The notes: generated by a model not told the origin, from the letters alone. A DNA stretch of 64,000 nucleotides from Naegleria gruberi (GCA_000004985.1 GG738862.1); one strand, 5' to 3'; counted from the stretch's first letter, positions 45,544 to 56,035 are shown. Translations and numbers: made by a program.

Positions 45544-46084
45544 ATTCAATGTTCAATTTTATGATGATGGAAAAATGTATTTCATTCCGAGAGATATTTC
45601 ATTTGAACTGATAGAAATAAATTGATGGGAGGAGGTGTTGCTGAACAAACCATGTGTCAAATAAGAGAAGAGTCAAGAAGAAGAAATTCTGTCAAGTGAA
45701 CACATGTGTTGTAAACTCATGATGGAACCCACTACGATTTTCTGACATGTCCAAATAATTGTAGTTCAATTACAACAGTATAATGCAATTTACAAAAGTG
45801 AGTGACATACCTACCATTTATCTAATTTGTTGCCAATCATGTCCAAATTTATTCTGTCAATTGTCCAAACCTTACTCAACCACCAATGAGATTGAAGTGT
45901 CATGGACAACGATAGTTCCAGCGTTTGTCCTTGTTCTGCAACATTCTATCCATTACAATATGCAGCTCTGGTGAACTTTCCACTGCGCCATTCTCGTGTC
46001 CATCATCGCTTTCGAATAAAAACTGCAGCAAATCTCACAAAATTTCACAACAAAAAAAAACAAAAACCAATCAATCATAAAAAG

Positions 46085-46483
46085 ATGCCACAACAATTCC
46101 TCATTGTCCTCGAAAAATGTGTCGAACAAGATGACGGCAGCAATGAAATCTGGTCTCAATTCAAGTGCAGCGACTCTGTTTTCGAATATGTTTTTGGAAT
46201 CGAATATCCAACAGGAACCACAGCTGGCGAAAGAATTGCCAGAATTCCAACCAGTGGCGCCAATTTAGATTTGTACGCTGGAATTGAGAGAATTTTCAAT
46301 AAGAATGGACAAGTTGTCTCCAAACTTAAGGGAATCATGACAAATGGTTCTTGGACTTTATTCCAATTGTTGAGTGATAAGGGATTCAAGTTGGCTGAAC
46401 AACGTAATTATGATGTTGTGCAATTTTGTTCAACTCTTAATGGAAGAAAGTTGGTTGAGAGAATTTTTGTTAGAGATTTGTAA
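46085..46483 (+). CDS. small hypothetical protein (132 aa)
   Basis: ATG at 46085 (MPQQFLIVLEK...); the ORF-track start at 45902 is upstream. No confident family assignment. Confidence 0.4.
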   Translation: MPQQFLIVLEKCVEQDDGSNEIWSQFKCSDSVFEYVFGIEYPTGTTAGERIARIPTSGANLDLYAGIERIFNKNGQVVSKLKGIMTNGSWTLFQLLSDKGFKLAEQRNYDVVQFCSTLNGRKLVERIFVRDL

Positions 46484-46523: not shown

Positions 46524-46562
46524 CACTACGAGCCAACGAGCTAAGAAATGTCGTCGAGCTGT
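46524..46562 (+). repeat. left terminal inverted repeat of candidate element
   Basis: CACTACGAGCCAACGAGCTAAGAAATGTCGTCGAGCTGT. The outer 13 bp and inner 13 bp are perfectly inverted-complementary to 50629-50657. Confidence 0.6.
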
Positions 46563-46715
46563 GAAATATTTTCGCAATTATTAAAAAATAAAAATGGTGA
46601 GACCTTTCAATACTTTCATTCTCAATTTAGAGACATGAAAAACAAATTTAGTCATTATCCGCCAGTATAAAAGCTAACAAAACAACATGTGCAACAATTA
46701 AACAACAAAACAAAT

Positions 46716-47357
46716 ATGACCAGGAACAACAACAATAATAAGAGGAAGAGTAGTGATAGTAGTGGAAAACAGAAGAAGAGGAAGATACAAACTGGGGAAT
46801 TACCATCATCAATACCTTTGGATTCAAGAGATGGAGAAGGAGAAGTGGATTTCATTTTGGAATCAGGAGATTTTGAATATAAACCGGAATATGAGGAGTG
46901 GAATCAAGTACCATCGGAAAAGCAATTAGTTTTTAGTGTTATTTGGGGAGTTTTTGCTAAATGTGCAAGATGTAAAATCAATCAACATTTGGATATGAAT
47001 GCTAGTTGTACAATTAATCATGAAACTCTTGGATCATGTGCACATCAAGTATTTTATTTGATGATGAAGGACTCAAAGGGAGAATTTCGTAGATGGTATC
47101 AGGATGTTTGGTGGAATGGTATTAGAAAAAGAAGCAAATGTATTCAATTTATATTCCGAAATTGTTTACCGAATTTTGATAAATATGATGATTGGGGAAT
47201 GGTATTAATATTGCACACCAACAACACATCTCAATTTGGAACACTCAAATGTAGACAACAAATGAATATTACTAGAATGTCAATAACTTGTAATATTGAA
47301 ACAGGAGAGGTTTGGAGTTCTTTTAGATTCAAGAAGTCAATTGAGAAAGTACGATAA
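46716..47357 (+). CDS. Cys/His-rich hypothetical protein (213 aa) inside candidate element
   Basis: ATG at 46716; the ORF-track start at 46689 is GTG. N-terminal KR-rich NLS-like tract. Contains CARCKINQHLDMNASCTINHETLGSCAH. Confidence 0.45.
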   Translation: MTRNNNNNKRKSSDSSGKQKKRKIQTGELPSSIPLDSRDGEGEVDFILESGDFEYKPEYEEWNQVPSEKQLVFSVIWGVFAKCARCKINQHLDMNASCTINHETLGSCAHQVFYLMMKDSKGEFRRWYQDVWWNGIRKRSKCIQFIFRNCLPNFDKYDDWGMVLILHTNNTSQFGTLKCRQQMNITRMSITCNIETGEVWSSFRFKKSIEKVR

Positions 47358-47389
47358 CAACTTGTCAACCAACAATCAACAAATAAAAT

Positions 47390-49123
47390 ATGTCAGCATC
47401 CTTTAAATCTGACGTTCGTAAAATTGCTTTAACAATACCTCCCGAGTTGAACAATGATTCATTTCCTTCCATCCTACTTTTTTGTGTGTGTCAGCTCATG
47501 CTGAAATGTATTACAATAGAAGTACTCGAAAATATTTTGCTAAGTGCTTTTATTAATATTTATTTACCAATGATGACAAACAATAATGAACGCAACAAAC
47601 CTCTTGGCTGGGAAATTATTGATGATGATGATGTTACATCTCAACATAATTCGGAAGCAAGTATTGACATTGTTTCATTGTTAAGACAAGCAAGTGATGA
47701 AGTACAAAATATTGAACAAAGTGAGGATGTAGAGCATTCCCAACAAACAAGAAAACAATCAACAAGCAAGAAACCAAAAGCACCAAAACAGGTGCCAATT
47801 TTATACACTGATATTTTGGATAATTATACTGATTTTTCGTTTTTAAAATATAAATTAACTGGAGATGCAATTATTGAGGATGGAAGAGTTAATAGAACTA
47901 AGAGCAAATCTAAGCCAGTAGCAATTTGTAATATGGATCATTTCGGATTTTCAAAAAAAGATTTGTTTAGAAAATCTTGTAAACATTTCGTTGAATCTAA
48001 GCCCCATCTAAATTTAATATCAGCTAACAATAATTCTATTAAAAGCATCAAACTATTTAATATTAATGAAATGAAACAGAGTAAGGATATAAAATTTAAA
48101 GATAAAGAAGTTCTAGGAAGATTCTTATTTGGAATTGAATTGGCTGGATTAAATCATGGAATTAATGGATTTGAACATTTTATTCATTTGATTGCATATT
48201 TATTTAAGGATGAATTTATTCATGCCATTGGAACATATGATTACAAGGATAAAATTTTAAAAAAAGTAAAAGAATTACCAATTCAGGAACATTTAGAAAG
48301 TCTTAATGAATATATTGAGATGTATGAAAAAAAAACATTTCCAATAATATCTCCACTGAAATATATTGAAGAAGAGCAACATCAGGATTTGGATAGTGAA
48401 GAAGATCAAAATGAAGAACATGAACATTTTAATGAATTTAATACTGGAGTGGTTTCAACAACAAAGAAACATTCAAAGGAAAAACAACAACCACAAAAAG
48501 AAACAAATATTGAAAATGATGATAATGAATGGCATGATATAGATAGCTCAATGGATGACGATGTTGAAGAGGTAGTTAATATTGTTGAACAATCACGTGT
48601 AGATGTAGTCAATAATGAATCAAGTAAATTTACATTTACTAAAAAAATGGTTAGAGATATTTATGGAAAACAAGAATCCAGAATGTCATGTTTGAATTAT
48701 TCTAAATTTTCCAAAATAACTGAATCAGACAACACCAAAGACTCAGTTTTAAGAAAAGCAACAGCTATTTTGAATATACAAACTCTTTTAAAATTTGGAG
48801 TTCAGGTTGATGAAGAAAATTCAATAGTTGTCGCGAGCATGCTCAAGGTGTTGGAAGAATCAATAAGGTACCACATTAATTGGATTAAGGAAGCCGAAAA
48901 AGATGAAACTTTGAGCAAAAAATTGAAAAAAGAGGATTTGGAAATAGATTTAAAAGTATTTTATTTCAAATTAAATCTAGATGAAGCCTCAGGTACTGTT
49001 ACATTCGCTATTCAATTATTGAATGGAAAATCTCATGGAAATCCCGAATCGAGATTAAATGTGACAACACTAGCTGCCTGGCGTGGAGGCGAAGAGAAAA
49101 TGAGATCGAAAGTAGTAATGTAA
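47390..49123 (+). CDS. hypothetical 577-aa protein inside candidate element (possible transposase / accessory; acidic central region)
   Basis: ATG at 47390, 33 nt after the stop of the previous ORF. The stop at 49121-49123 lies 12 nt before the Tet ATG. No DDE triad recognisable by eye. Confidence 0.5.
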   Translation: MSASFKSDVRKIALTIPPELNNDSFPSILLFCVCQLMLKCITIEVLENILLSAFINIYLPMMTNNNERNKPLGWEIIDDDDVTSQHNSEASIDIVSLLRQASDEVQNIEQSEDVEHSQQTRKQSTSKKPKAPKQVPILYTDILDNYTDFSFLKYKLTGDAIIEDGRVNRTKSKSKPVAICNMDHFGFSKKDLFRKSCKHFVESKPHLNLISANNNSIKSIKLFNINEMKQSKDIKFKDKEVLGRFLFGIELAGLNHGINGFEHFIHLIAYLFKDEFIHAIGTYDYKDKILKKVKELPIQEHLESLNEYIEMYEKKTFPIISPLKYIEEEQHQDLDSEEDQNEEHEHFNEFNTGVVSTTKKHSKEKQQPQKETNIENDDNEWHDIDSSMDDDVEEVVNIVEQSRVDVVNNESSKFTFTKKMVRDIYGKQESRMSCLNYSKFSKITESDNTKDSVLRKATAILNIQTLLKFGVQVDEENSIVVASMLKVLEESIRYHINWIKEAEKDETLSKKLKKEDLEIDLKVFYFKLNLDEASGTVTFAIQLLNGKSHGNPESRLNVTTLAAWRGGEEKMRSKVVM

Positions 49124-49135
49124 TATTTTAAATTT

Positions 49136-50526
49136 ATGATTGAGGCTACTAGAGCTAACGGAGTAATTGTTGATGGGAAAACATACAAAGTTGACTATTT
49201 AATGACAACTGATTTATTATCCTTGAAAAATATTAGTAGATTAATGTTTAAAAGAATGTGCCCATATTGTTTGAGTCTTTCAACATTATGTGATAGAAGA
49301 CATGTATTGAGAGCAAAAGAAGAACTTTCATGTATTTTATCTATTCCTCCCTCAAAGATAGTAATTTGTTTCCTCCATTTAAGGGAACGAATCATGGAAA
49401 GACTGTTAATAGATTCAATATTGACAATGAGTAGTACGAGAAAATTTTTGAAGACGTTGAAATCAATTAAGAATTTTCAGAACTTTTCATTGCGTCAACT
49501 TAACACCAAAAAAGGAATATTATATAGATGTTACTTGATAGGAAATATGGTTAAATCATTGTTAAAAAGTCTTATTGTTATCAAGAAATTTATCAATCCA
49601 ATGCAATATGAATTGATGACCAAATTTAAACGAGTAGTGGATTTGTTGAACGTAAAGGAACGAATGGATGATGAACAGTATGAAACTTTTATGAAAGCTC
49701 TCAAAGATATGCAACAATCATATTGCAGATTATATGTTAATGGTCCTAAAAGTTGGTACATGCACATATTGTTTCATCATGTTCCAAGTTTATTGAAAAT
49801 GTACGGCTCCTTAAAGCCATTTGAAACTCAGGGTTTTGAAGGTAAGTAATCATTAACTTTAATATTAATTGTAAACAGGAGCTCACATTGACGATAAAGA
49901 TCTATTGGAAAAAACCTCTCATAATGGAGGAAGAAAATCATATTTGCACTTTATGTTTCCAAACTTTAAAGATATAATGTTAATCCAATTTATTTTACCT
50001 AGATTAAGGAAATTGTTAATTTGTAACGAGTATGGTTTTAAATTTGACTGTAGTAAAAGAGATTCTAAATTGGTAAGGCAATTTCTTGATGAGCCCTATC
50101 CTGATATACTTTGTGAATATTCTCATTTATTGGAAAGAAATGATGATCAAATGTGTGATGACGAATGTTGTCAAAATAATTGATTCACATAGAATTATTA
50201 AAGCTCATAGGGATAATCTTGATGTAGGAGTTAGTATATTGTTTTATTTCGGATCGTATCTTGAAAATGAAGGTTATTTGGAGTTAACTGATAAAAATTG
50301 CAAAATATATTGCAGACCTGGAGATGTAGTGATATTTAAAGGAAATATTTATAAACACAAAGTTAATAATATTTCAACAGGATTTAGGATAGGAATTGTT
50401 TATTTCACACATAAGGGAAACAAGTCAAAACCATACTATGAAACAACGCAACGAGCCTCTTTGAAGCAACACAGAGAGTTGTTTCCTAACGAGAAGCCAA
50501 AGAAAAAGAAGAAGACAAATAAATAA
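49136..50526 (+). CDS. Tet/JBP-family 2-oxoglutarate/Fe(II) dioxygenase (NgTet-like), 3 exons, ~432 aa
   Basis: Model: join(49136..49841, 49879..50022, 50078..50526).
- Intron 1 (49842-49878, 37 nt): GTAAGTaatc...gtaaacag, phase 1.
- Intron 2 ends at the AG at 50076-77. Its donor is GTAACG at 50023 (55 nt); the alternative is GTTTTA at 50035 (43 nt). Both are phase 1 and both keep the total divisible by 3.
- Catalytic motifs: H-R-D (SHRIIKAHRDNLDVGVSILFYFGSY), distal His (GDVVIFKGNIYKHKV) and 2OG-binding Arg (GFRIGIVYFTHKG).
- The C-terminal half is near-colinear with NgTet1 as I recall it (YLELTDKNCK; KPYYE.TQ..SLK.H.E). Confidence 0.65.
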
Positions 50527-50628
50527 ACGAACTTCATTCCTATCAATGTCAAAAATTTATTTGTTGTTTACATTCTAAAGAGAACATCCCTTCCAAAAAA
50601 AATTTACCTTCTACTTGTATTCTAATGT

Positions 50629-50657
50629 ACAGCTCGACGACCGCTTGGCTCGTAGTG
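50629..50657 (+). repeat. right terminal inverted repeat of candidate element
   Basis: ACAGCTCGACGACCGCTTGGCTCGTAGTG. Its reverse complement matches the left end 46524-46562. Confidence 0.6.
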
Positions 50658-50695
50658 TTGTGTTTTGAAAACTTGATCACAATTTGGATAAAAAA

Positions 50696-52606
50696 ATGTC
50701 ATTAGAGGATGATGGAGAGAAGCAGATTTATTCTGTGTTTAATTTACCGGAAGTGGTTTCTAATGTTTTATTAAATTTATCTGCAAGGGAAAGAGCAAAG
50801 TTTCGTCTCATCAATTCGAATTGTGATCAAGTATACAAAATTGAAGAGGAATTATTATTTATTAAATTATGGACAAGATATAGAGATGGACATTCGTTCG
50901 GATATCAAGAAGAAACACTTTCTAATGAAGAATTGGAGCATTATCAAGAAATTTATGGAAATTTACAATTTCATTTGCGTGTTTGGTTGACTAAATGTTC
51001 AAATGGAAGATATGAGAGGGAAAATTCATTGTTATTGAGTATTTGCAATATTGGCGATTGGAGATTTATTCAAGATTGTCCATTTGTGAATGAAGATTTT
51101 CTTGAAGAATATTTAGATTCGAATTTGGTAAAGAGTTTAGTTTGTGTTCACATGGCGAAAGAAGTTTCGTATTTTATGGACATGAGAAGTGGAATATTCT
51201 ACCAAAATGTTAATATTAAATCTACTTTGAATTGGAAAAGACTTGGAACTATTCAAGAATGGTTAGAAAATATGCCCTTCGATATATTAGGAAAATTATC
51301 AATGACTAATAAGGGAAGAAAAGTTAATTATCTTGCAAAACTTATGAAAGCAATGGAAGGAAATAATATTGAGGCGATTATTTCTTTATTGAAACAGAAT
51401 TTATGTTTATTTCCCTATTTAAAGGATCAATTTAAAAGAAGGGAAGAAATTTTACAATTTTTATTGGAAAATAACGTTTATGGAACATCAATTATTGGTA
51501 TACACAGTTATTTACCTGCATTTATACCGTATGATTTGAGATGTGATCCAGATTTTGTATTGAAATATTGTAAAATTATTGATTTTTATTATTATTTACC
51601 AACTAAATTAAGAAATGATACTGAATTGATCATTAAAATATTGGAAATTCACAAAGATGTCACTATTCATCTCAGTTCAGTACCAAAAGAATTATTTTCT
51701 GATATTAGGGTTTTGAAAATATTAAGAAAACCAATTATGGAAGAATTACAATACAAAGATTTCCCACATTTGGAAATTGACACTATTGAAAAATTAATGA
51801 TATTTGGAGATTGTAATATTCTATATCCATACATATCTGACAAGTTACTCAATGATCAAGATTTTATCAGGAAATTTTTAATTGCTCAATATGGAGAGGA
51901 GTATAATGTAAATCCTACAAATTTGGAATCTGTTAAACATCCATTACAAATGGTGTTTATTGACCAATCATTGAGAAGTAACAAATCAATCATGGAAAAC
52001 CTCTCACAATACCATCTTTTATATTTATGTGGCGACTTGAAAAGAGATTTTGACATTTTATCAAAAATTGAAAAAACAAGTATTCTAAAGAAGGTCAATC
52101 CACTTTTAACATTGGAAGATTATCTTGAAATATTTAGAAAATTCATACAAAGATCTCCAACGAAAACTTTTACATTTTACTATTATATTTCAAATTTACC
52201 AACAAAATTATTCAATTGTAAAGAGGTTGTTCTGACAACAGCAAAATTATACAAAAAGTATCTTGTGGTTTTAAGTAAGATTGGAAGTGAATTATGTAAG
52301 GATGTGCAGTTTTGGAGGGAATTGTTAGAGGAAACTTCGTATGTTGATATTGGAAGTTTCGTCCCACATGAAATTCGAAACGATCCAAAAGTTTTCCTCA
52401 AACAATTGAAATATCCTGAATTGCAAATGTGTTCAAAAGAGTTGTTGGAAAATGTTGAATTTGTGGAGGAGTTTTTGGTTGCCAATAATCATTTCGAATA
52501 CATTTACCTTTCACCTAAAATGAGATCAAATAAGGAATTATTCATGACATTAAGTGAGAAAGATATGGAACTATTTCAATTTGCATCCCCTGATTTATTT
52601 GCCTAA
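50696..52606 (+). CDS. DUF4116-repeat protein with F-box-like N-terminus (637 aa)
   Basis: ATG at 50696; the ORF-track start at 50684 is TTG. N-terminal LPEVVSNVLLNLSARERAKFRLINSNCDQV (F-box-like). Repeated D..FVLK...LP..LRND.E(L/I) units (DPDFVLKYCKII..LPTKLRNDTELIIKIL; LLNDQDFIRKFL; IRNDPKVFLKQL; MRSNKELFMTL). Confidence 0.55.
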   Translation: MSLEDDGEKQIYSVFNLPEVVSNVLLNLSARERAKFRLINSNCDQVYKIEEELLFIKLWTRYRDGHSFGYQEETLSNEELEHYQEIYGNLQFHLRVWLTKCSNGRYERENSLLLSICNIGDWRFIQDCPFVNEDFLEEYLDSNLVKSLVCVHMAKEVSYFMDMRSGIFYQNVNIKSTLNWKRLGTIQEWLENMPFDILGKLSMTNKGRKVNYLAKLMKAMEGNNIEAIISLLKQNLCLFPYLKDQFKRREEILQFLLENNVYGTSIIGIHSYLPAFIPYDLRCDPDFVLKYCKIIDFYYYLPTKLRNDTELIIKILEIHKDVTIHLSSVPKELFSDIRVLKILRKPIMEELQYKDFPHLEIDTIEKLMIFGDCNILYPYISDKLLNDQDFIRKFLIAQYGEEYNVNPTNLESVKHPLQMVFIDQSLRSNKSIMENLSQYHLLYLCGDLKRDFDILSKIEKTSILKKVNPLLTLEDYLEIFRKFIQRSPTKTFTFYYYISNLPTKLFNCKEVVLTTAKLYKKYLVVLSKIGSELCKDVQFWRELLEETSYVDIGSFVPHEIRNDPKVFLKQLKYPELQMCSKELLENVEFVEEFLVANNHFEYIYLSPKMRSNKELFMTLSEKDMELFQFASPDLFA

Positions 52607-54175: not shown

Positions 54176-56035
54176 ATGTATCAAAGGAAAGCATTGATAA
54201 CTAACCAATCAATCCTTAGTGTCAGTTTGCTGCTAGTTTGTTTACTGGCATTAAGTATTTTGCATGTTCCATCATCTGTTTTGTGTGCTTCCTCAAGTAG
54301 CTCATCAAGTAATGGAACTGTGAGAGAATGGCTCAATGACTTGAATGATCAAGCTGCTAATCTACAATCCTCTGCTTCAAGATTGCAAAAAGCTATTGCA
54401 ATTTTGAGTATGGCCAACAATACAGCATCCATCATCAGCATGAGAAATGCCCAGCTAAAGAAGATTAATTCTGCACTTGACATGATTAATCAAGAAATTT
54501 CAATCTTTAAAATCACCTGCAGTAATAATGATGGTCCTGATTGTAGCATTCCAGTATGTGTATCAAAGTGTTTGAACTGCTCTGGACCTGGAAAGTGTGG
54601 TGTTTGTTCTGGTAATTTTGATGGAAGTGATTGCTCTGCATGTAAATCTGGATGGAGTAATTACAATAGCAATTGTACTGTTCCAATTTGTGATTCTAAA
54701 TGTATTATTTGTCAATCACCTGGAAACTGTACCAATTGCTCTGGTAATTATGATGGTTCTGTATGTTCATCATGCAAATCAGGATGGAATGGTTCTAATT
54801 GTTCAACACCTATTTGTGATTCTAAATGTGTAACTTGTCTCTCACCAGGAAACTGTACTAATTGCTCTGGTAATTGGACTGGATCTGCCTGTTCTATTCC
54901 TGTATGTGATTCCAAATGTTTGAATTGTTCAGCACCTAGTGTTTGTTCTCAATGTTCTGGTAATTGGGTTGGTTTAACTTGTTCAGTATGTCAGACAGGA
55001 TGGACAGGAGCAACTTGTTCAACACCAGTATGTGATTCCAAATGTACAACCTGTGCATCTCCTGGTGTTTGCTCAGTTTGTTCTGGTAATTGGCAAGGAT
55101 CTACATGTTCCACATGTAAGACAGGATGGACAGGAGCAACTTGTTCAACACCAATTTGTGATTCCAAATGTACAACCTGTGCATCTCCTGGTCAGTGTTC
55201 TGTGTGTTCTGCTGGTTGGACAGGAGCAACTTGTTCAACACCAGTTTGTGATTCTAAATGTACAACATGTGCATCTCCTGGTCAGTGTTCTGTGTGTTCT
55301 TCTGGTTGGACAGGAGCAACTTGTTCAACACCAGTTTGTGATTCCAAATGTACAACATGTACATCTCCTGGTGTTTGCTCAGTTTGTTCTGGTAACTGGG
55401 ATGGTCCTTCATGTTCTGTGTGTAAAACTAGTTGGACAGGTTCATCTTGCAATCTCGCTCTTGGTGATTTTGCAAACTCACCATTATTCTCCGCTAGTTA
55501 TGGAGCTAGGTTGATCACATCTATTTTGAGTGGCGTTATGAAGAAAACACCAACCAGACTCTATAGAGCCATGGCAACTTATGGTATGGGAATTGGTTAT
55601 GGCTATCATCCTTACGCTTTCCATAATGCCTGCAATGGTTATTCTTCAACAGTTACAATTGTGAAAACATCAGCAGGGGCTGTATTTGGTGCCTATCTAA
55701 GCATTCCATGGGAAGATTATAATGCTGGGGATACAACAACTCGTAAGACATTTTCAGATCCTAATGCATTTCTATTTAGTATGGTAACATCGAGCGGTGT
55801 GGAGAGATTTGTGAAATTGGGTTATTCTGGAGCTGTTGGACAAACTGTTACATACAATTTTATAACACATCCATTGTTTGGAGCGTCGGATATTTATTTG
55901 GGACAAGGGATGAGCTATCAGCCAGCACCTGATGCTTATTCGAAACCAGCAACTTTTCAACCTTTGGAACCTAACTGGAGTTATGGAACTACATATTCAT
56001 TCACTGTTTCTGATTATGAAGTGTATAGTATTTAA
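54176..56035 (+). CDS. secreted Cys-rich EGF/furin-like repeat protein with C-terminal TLDc domain
   Basis: ATG at 54176. Signal peptide MYQRKALITNQSILSVSLLLVCLLALSILHV. About 12 tandem CxxxCDSKCxxCxSPGxCxxCSGNWxGSxCSxCKxGWTGxxCS units. C-terminal ...VTIVKTSAGAVFGAYLSIPWEDYNAG...NAFLFSMV...GASDIYLGQG...SFTVSDYEVYSI is a TLDc-like signature. Confidence 0.65.
   Translation: MYQRKALITNQSILSVSLLLVCLLALSILHVPSSVLCASSSSSSSNGTVREWLNDLNDQAANLQSSASRLQKAIAILSMANNTASIISMRNAQLKKINSALDMINQEISIFKITCSNNDGPDCSIPVCVSKCLNCSGPGKCGVCSGNFDGSDCSACKSGWSNYNSNCTVPICDSKCIICQSPGNCTNCSGNYDGSVCSSCKSGWNGSNCSTPICDSKCVTCLSPGNCTNCSGNWTGSACSIPVCDSKCLNCSAPSVCSQCSGNWVGLTCSVCQTGWTGATCSTPVCDSKCTTCASPGVCSVCSGNWQGSTCSTCKTGWTGATCSTPICDSKCTTCASPGQCSVCSAGWTGATCSTPVCDSKCTTCASPGQCSVCSSGWTGATCSTPVCDSKCTTCTSPGVCSVCSGNWDGPSCSVCKTSWTGSSCNLALGDFANSPLFSASYGARLITSILSGVMKKTPTRLYRAMATYGMGIGYGYHPYAFHNACNGYSSTVTIVKTSAGAVFGAYLSIPWEDYNAGDTTTRKTFSDPNAFLFSMVTSSGVERFVKLGYSGAVGQTVTYNFITHPLFGASDIYLGQGMSYQPAPDAYSKPATFQPLEPNWSYGTTYSFTVSDYEVYSI
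54530..55440 (+). repeat. intragenic tandem DNA repeats (alternating ~120-bp and ~78-bp units) encoding the EGF-like modules
   Basis: Near-identical DNA units, for example ACTTGTTCAACACCAGT(A/T)TGTGATTC(C/T)AAATGTACAAC(C/A)TGTGCATCTCCTGG(TGTTTGC/TCAGTGT). They produce antisense pseudo-ORFs (54597..54833, 55032..55514). Confidence 0.8.

Follow-up and report, generated by a model that had tools for sequence, protein, structure and literature searches.

A probable defective CMCT transposon copy holding an NgTet1-like 3' gene fragment in Naegleria gruberi

Overview of the locus

The stretch of Naegleria gruberi DNA analysed here, referred to as the window, is 64,000 nucleotides long. The locus of interest is probably a cut-and-paste transposon of the CACTA/EnSpm-Mirage-Chapaev-Transib (CMCT) clade in a defective copy, within which lies a 3' fragment of an NgTet1-like gene that was captured or left by a deletion. 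The element, described from one copy in N. gruberi NEG-M, features in order a left terminal inverted repeat (TIR), an upstream ORF, a transposase pseudogene, the Tet 3' fragment and a right TIR (Table 1). A sequence-only reading had assigned positions 49136-50526 to a Tet/JBP-like dioxygenase gene with two small introns, possibly fused in frame to the 577-aa ORF upstream. Alignment with homologues places 49136-50183 in a transposase and leaves only the sequence from 50182 onward to Tet. The best database protein match to the whole region is 53% identical.

Table 1. Features of the transposon copy and their positions in the window.
Feature	Position	Strand	Basis
Whole TIR-bounded DNA transposon copy, 4134 bp	46524-50657	+	Exact inverted terminal blocks
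Left TIR: CACTACGAGCCAA, 13-nt spacer, GTCGTCGAGCTGT; CACTA-type terminus	46524-46562	+	
Cys/His-rich upstream ORF, 213 aa from ATG (222 aa from GTG 46689)	46716-47357	+	Conserved in relatives
Transposase N-terminal part (577-aa ORF)	47390-49120	+	Co-linear with P0001 and many relatives
In-frame TAA between D1 and D2	49121-49123	+	tblastn HSPs of relatives run across
Transposase catalytic part	49124-49841	+	D2, CxxC, HxxxxH, E
Spliceosomal intron of 37 nt, GTAAGT...ACAG, phase 1, in transposase gene	49842-49878	+	Frame switch in homologue alignments
Transposase last exon (AHIDDK...FLDEPYP...CCQNN, then TGA)	49879-50183	+	Same-frame alignment with homologues
3' half of NgTet1-like TET/JBP dioxygenase and Lys-rich tail	50182-50526	+	Equivalent to NgTet1 residues 221-321
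Right TIR: CACTACGAGCCAA, GCG, GTCGTCGAGCTGT on the minus strand	50630-50657	-	

The transposase gene

The stretch 49136-50181 is not Tet. The supposed Tet gene is transposase for roughly its first 335 codons, and 49136-50183 is, judged by homology, the C-terminal two thirds of a transposase catalytic domain with its D2, CxxC, HxxxxH and E motifs. By tblastn, P0001, a 791-aa paralogue from N. gruberi, gives one HSP over 48404-49843, which runs across the TAA, and its alignment continues in the next frame over 49878-50168. P0002 gives the same pattern, as do two Willaertia magna loci, one protein from N. lovaniensis and dozens of proteins from metagenomes, and in more than 15 relatives one tblastn HSP spans the TAA without a change of frame. 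Since relatives align co-linearly across the TAA and on past the intron, the 577-aa ORF, the following 237-aa ORF and the next ~100 codons form one predicted gene. The observations that the upstream stop lies 12 nt before the ATG at 49136 and that the two ORFs share a frame hold. The suspected link between the two ORFs also holds in that they belong together and a transposase is involved; they are, however, joined by co-linearity across the TAA and not by an intron.

The TAA sits in a 2-codon (6-nt) insertion that is absent from all relatives, and it is best read as a nonsense lesion within that insertion. With the 37-nt intron removed the gene reads through 919 codons in which the TAA is the sole internal stop, compared with a random expectation of ~9% stop codons. 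The first catalytic Asp (D1, 48980-82, motif NLDEASG), which the profile aligns with RAG1 D600, lies in the 577-aa ORF. The other catalytic residues are located in the next ORF, namely D2 at 49211-13 (TTDLLSL), CxxC at 49259-61 and 49268-70, HxxxxH at 49763-65 and 49778-80 and the catalytic E at 49838-40, so the TAA would cut the catalytic domain in two.

The transposase frame ends at the TGA at 50181-83. Its C-terminus is ~100-140 aa shorter than those of P0001, P0010 and P0025, a comparison derived from P0001 (E548 of 791 aa) and from tblastn coordinates for P0010 and P0025. With the TAA and the short C-terminus, the copy does not have the uninterrupted transposase ORF of an autonomous copy. 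In the P0001 tail, residues ~685-784 form a separately conserved helical module that is also found in P0009 and P0015 and is absent from the window copy.

Two GenBank entries cover parts of this gene. P0006, a 516-aa predicted protein, covers 47573-49123, and XP_002678369.1 (P0007, NAEGRDRAFT_66509; 197 aa) covers 49256-49849. They are pieces of one transposase pseudogene and not independent genes.

Introns and proposed splice junctions

The frame switch of the P0001 and P0002 alignments falls exactly at 49842-49878, and the Willaertia homologues and the metagenome homologues L003 and L004 are uninterrupted at this site. The 37-nt GTAAGT intron that had been proposed for the Tet gene exists; however, it belongs to the transposase. 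The second proposed intron, from 50023 or 50035 to 50077, was rejected on homologue co-linearity in the transposase frame. P0001, P0002 and Willaertia read through it in the unspliced frame, and beyond 49878 their alignments extend to 50168, 50147 and ~50102, respectively. A search for a frame-compatible acceptor for the GTAAGG donor at 50073 found none, as had been pointed out.

A 33-nt GT...AG segment had been suggested as an intron fusing the two ORFs. The segment actually lies at 49112-49144, one base away from where it was placed, and it is coding in relatives, as it encodes KFMIE, which is common to P0001. The spacing from GGEEK to NG is 18 residues in all relatives and 20 in the window, counting the stop; the splice would leave 9. 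This intron was rejected because it would remove conserved residues and break the motif spacing.

Transposase family and fold

An exhaustive HMMER search found 124 relatives of the transposase. An alignment of 54 of these features near-invariant D, CxxC, H, R, Y, HxxxxH and E positions, and the motif spacing equals that of RAG1 D708/C727/C730 and H937/H942/E962. The family profile matches zebrafish RAG1 (E = 3e-11), amphioxus BbRAG1L (3e-9) and HzTransib (1e-6). With Pfam, 7 of the 54 relatives match RAG1 and one matches tnp2; the transposase parts of the window ORFs match no Pfam model above threshold. For the fold, the intact paralogue P0001 stood in for the window protein, with which it shares 45-53% identity. 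The AlphaFold model of P0001 has a core pLDDT above 90, and the top 33 PDB fold matches are RAG1, BbRAG1L or HzTransib only, with E-values down to 3e-10 and TM-scores up to 0.60.

Motifs and modelled fold together identify the transposase as a predicted RAG1/Transib-fold DDE enzyme of the CMCT clade. The window copy features the DDE triad, the C(2)C after the second D and the H(4)H 20 residues before the E that are found in CMCT transposons and the RAG1 core. It differs from these in having a conserved extra upstream ORF and a stop-interrupted transposase, and its placement is at the level of the clade, not of a sub-lineage. The Kyakuja-Dileera-Zisupton (KDZ) family was considered for the transposase and found no support, as profile and fold point to RAG1/Transib/CMC. 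Two metagenomic relatives, P0023 and P0028, feature a C-terminal Ulp1/Peptidase_C48 protease domain, a domain that is frequent in DNA transposons. Metagenome scans with Tet and with the transposase gave no matches. The CMCT clade is defined by a DDE enzyme with a C(2)C after D2, an H(3-4)H before the E and a RAG1-like fold (PMC12730594). Among the classified DNA transposons of N. lovaniensis, CMC-EnSpm forms the largest class (PMC6125883).

The Tet-like fragment

The ORF at 50086-50526 matches the NgTet1 structures 5CG8/4LT5 with E = 3e-42. With NgTet1 as the reference, residues 221-319 align with 50182-50478 at 66% identity by tblastn and Smith-Waterman. The H-R-D/YKH/FRIG core and the C-terminal YYE.TQ..SLK, which had been called intact from the sequence alone, are confirmed in this alignment. 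The Fe(II) triad HxD...H is formed by H 50206-08, D 50212-14 and H 50356-58 (YKH), which align with NgTet1 H229, D231 and H279. The 2-oxoglutarate-binding Arg is kept as R 50386-88 (FRIG), the equivalent of NgTet1 R289, and the base-contacting residues D234, F295 and H297 of NgTet1 are also kept. The fragment thus has the ligands, base contacts and C-terminal helix of NgTet1 (PDB 4LT5, 5CG8/5CG9). In contrast to NgTet1, it is without residues 1-220 and without a homologous start codon, features an extra 13-aa Lys-rich tail and sits inside a transposon. An alignment to the NgTet proteins had been suggested as a check on the gene model; against NgTet1 the catalytic core matches, whereas the exon model fails, with homology from residue 221 only.

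The onset of Tet homology is abrupt at the Asp at 50182-84, and the same-frame sequence 5' of this Asp is unrelated to NgTet1. The Tet frame opens at 50080 within the transposase exon and is the +1 frame relative to the transposase. The fragment is stop-free for 115 codons in DNA of 29% GC, a composition at which ~9% of random codons are stops, and it has neither a start codon of its own nor an in-frame upstream exon. Searches of both strands and all frames of the 64 kb by tblastn and Smith-Waterman gave no match to NgTet1 residues 1-220 at E < 10. The complete double-stranded beta-helix, which includes NgTet1 residues ~57-220, is absent. The Pfam Tet_JBP model covers the fragment at positions 89-164 of 164 only and below threshold, and there is no GenBank annotation over the Tet-like part. 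Weak NgTet1 tblastn matches at 54.6-55.1 kb were considered as the missing Tet half and rejected, as they belong to a Cys-rich repeat protein.

The N-terminal sheet and helices of NgTet1 are required for building the active site and for DNA binding (PMC4678852). Because homology starts at residue 221 and NgTet1 needs its N-terminal part to complete two beta-sheets and helices, the fragment is predicted to be only the C-terminal half of the fold. As the sequence stands, the locus is predicted to be without an intact Tet dioxygenase and the fragment to be incapable of making an active one, since the N-terminal half is absent and there is no in-frame link to the transposase.

Element boundaries and content

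The element termini are CACTACGAG...CTCGTAGTG, and the ends read 5'-CACTA...TAGTG-3', as expected for the CMCT clade, with inverted 5'-CA...TG-3' termini. Both GC-rich TIR blocks (13 nt + 13 nt) are exact, are in inverted order and are found nowhere else in the window. Their local alignment score is 36, compared with 19.5 ± 2.9 for shuffled sequence, where 0 of 1000 shuffles reached 36, and the highest score among 295 genomic controls is 32. The flanks, ...AATATT and TTGTGT..., have only TT in common, and no clear target-site duplication of the 2-5 bp sought was found. The Tet fragment lies inside the element, 103 nt from the right TIR and in the same orientation as the transposase. A N. lovaniensis relative features analogous CACAACAATTTA ends with weak significance (p ~0.03), the TIRs of L005 are suggestive only, and none that were convincing were found in L001, L002 and L006.

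These boundaries bear on whether the Tet sequence belongs to the element. It could be the remnant of a host NgTet paralogue in or beside which the transposon landed, with the inverted repeats at 46524 and 50657 being fortuitous. The proposed ends are backed by no target-site duplication, one copy was examined and the Tet homology starts abruptly at the end of the transposase gene, all of which would fit such a remnant. However, two exact GC-rich blocks are inverted on both sides at a score that no shuffle reached, the right-hand blocks lie downstream of the Tet stop codon, and the Tet 5' half is neither upstream of the element nor elsewhere in the 64 kb. A host remnant is accordingly considered very unlikely.

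The upstream ORF has a homologue directly 5' of the transposase homologue in Willaertia magna (L002, 7742-8305; 43% identity, E = 4e-49) and another in a metagenome contig (L001, 353-856; E = 9e-16). It has no Pfam match; its product could be a companion protein that binds DNA, or the ORF could be the N-terminal exon of the transposase. Three GenBank 'predicted proteins' at this locus are parts of one transposon; this is confirmed for P0006 and XP_002678369.1 and assumed for the upstream-ORF model.

Several neighbouring genes lie outside the element. The ORF at 45902-46480 is identical to N. gruberi XP_002678366.1. Directly downstream, a 640-aa ORF (50684-52606) features four DUF4116 repeats (E = 2e-16). 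A locally GC-richer stretch at 54176-56035 encodes a 619-aa secreted-looking protein with Cys-rich EGF-like repeats (CS.P.CDSKC..C..PG.C..CSG.W).

The junction and the origin of the fragment

The end of the transposase frame at the TGA and the start of Tet homology at 50182 coincide, with a +1 change of frame. The Tet piece apparently stands in place of the transposase tail, because the window copy has 101 residues beyond the catalytic Glu and relatives have ~200-240. The stop context at 50175-50186 reads AAT AAT TGA T, in which a +1 slip gives GAT, the first Tet-homologous codon. This context resembles the antizyme UCC-UGA-U frameshift site, which is probably a coincidence.

The in-frame transposase-Tet fusion that had been put forward does not agree with this junction, as the Tet frame is shifted by +1 from that of the transposase and only half of the Tet fold is present. 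A functional fusion or coupled pair would have to arise via splicing or via readthrough and a +1 shift at AAU-UGA-U (50178-50184). Both frames are unusually intact, the Tet Fe and 2-oxoglutarate ligands are kept, a +1 slip at the TGA would place the ribosome in the Tet frame right at its first conserved residue, Asp, and frame-compatible GT..AG pairs exist. However, 28 distinct pairs of this kind could bridge the transposase and Tet frames in this AT-rich stretch, and finding one carries no weight, since such a pair is expected by chance. Additionally, both proposed introns delete residues that are conserved in relatives, the architecture was not found among database proteins, and the half fold does not include the N-terminal sheet and helices that NgTet1 needs (PMC4678852). 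A functional product is therefore highly improbable, because readthrough of the TAA, a change of frame and a working half-domain would all be needed.

The most economical origin is fragment capture or deletion during gap repair. By this reading, the TAA that separates D1 from D2 disables the copy. The Tet fragment may have entered by template switching or filler-DNA synthesis in the repair of a post-excision gap, which amounts to gene-fragment capture, or it may be what an internal deletion left of a whole Tet gene in an ancestral element. Capture of host exons is documented mainly in plants, where Pack-MULEs and CACTA elements carry them. Like these, the locus would feature a non-functional piece of a host gene between transposon ends and an abrupt junction with transposon sequence.

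The second route would make the copy an internal-deletion derivative of a 'TET+' transposon. Its ancestor would have featured a complete NgTet-type gene downstream of the transposase, as in fungal EnSpm, ESTA, Plavaka and KDZ elements, and the deletion would have run from the transposase tail through the intergenic DNA to the end of Tet codon 220. This account differs from the best explanation only in the source of the fragment. It agrees with the location of the Tet fragment within the TIRs, with its orientation and with a transposase C-terminus that is ~100-140 aa short and whose breakpoint is the Tet start. TET/JBP transposons of the same clade are known in fungi (PMC12730594), and transposable elements are methylated in N. 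gruberi, so that a Tet passenger would have a purpose (PMC12344493). However, none of the 124 transposase relatives features a Tet domain. Neither P0001 nor P0002 has a Tet tail, and six related loci (N. lovaniensis, Willaertia magna and metagenomes) show no Tet homology in their available flanks of up to 10 kb per side. Because neither the 124 relatives nor the six loci carry Tet, it is apparently not a regular passenger of this transposase family, and an origin from a TET+ element is regarded as unlikely.

The transposase, with 1 stop in 919 codons, and the Tet fragment, with its 115 open codons, are far better preserved than expected for an old pseudogene, and the nearly unbroken frames of the two pieces point to recent damage. 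Since the preservation exceeds the level of an old pseudogene, some function may persist, the TAA may be read through, or it may reflect an assembly error.

Significance

The locus joins two known kinds of element: it is a transposon holding a captured piece of a gene, and it recalls the TET-carrying transposons of fungi. The fungal TET+ DNA transposons are those of Kojima 2025 and the KDZ elements reportedly described by Iyer et al. 2014. DNA transposons that encode TET/JBP are documented in fungi, including members of the same CMCT clade; they are thought to use TET/JBP to escape methylation-based silencing and have so far been described only in fungi (PMC12730594). As in the fungal elements, a TET/JBP sequence lies here between the terminal repeats and downstream of the transposase. 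The fungal elements feature complete TET/JBP genes in many copies, whereas here there is half a gene, encoding half a domain, in one copy from a heterolobosean whose relatives are without Tet. By analogy, the Tet sequence in this transposon offers a modestly interesting parallel to them.

A further reading, in which a heterolobosean CMCT transposon carried TET and this locus is what remains of it, is doubtful and distinctly on the unlikely side. If true, it would be the first TET-carrying transposon outside fungi. Naegleria transposons would then have carried, or in other copies would carry, an NgTet-type dioxygenase erasing host 5mC on transposable elements, and the NgTet1-8 expansion would have been spread by such elements.

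As it stands, the locus should not be tallied as an NgTet gene. N. gruberi has several Tet-like genes and sparse 5mC that is found preferentially on repeats and transposable elements (PMC12344493). Because fungal TET transposons may counter silencing and N. gruberi 5mC falls preferentially on repeats and transposable elements, a Tet sequence inside a Naegleria transposon is a concrete lead, suggesting that this arms race may also be found in a eukaryote very distant from fungi.
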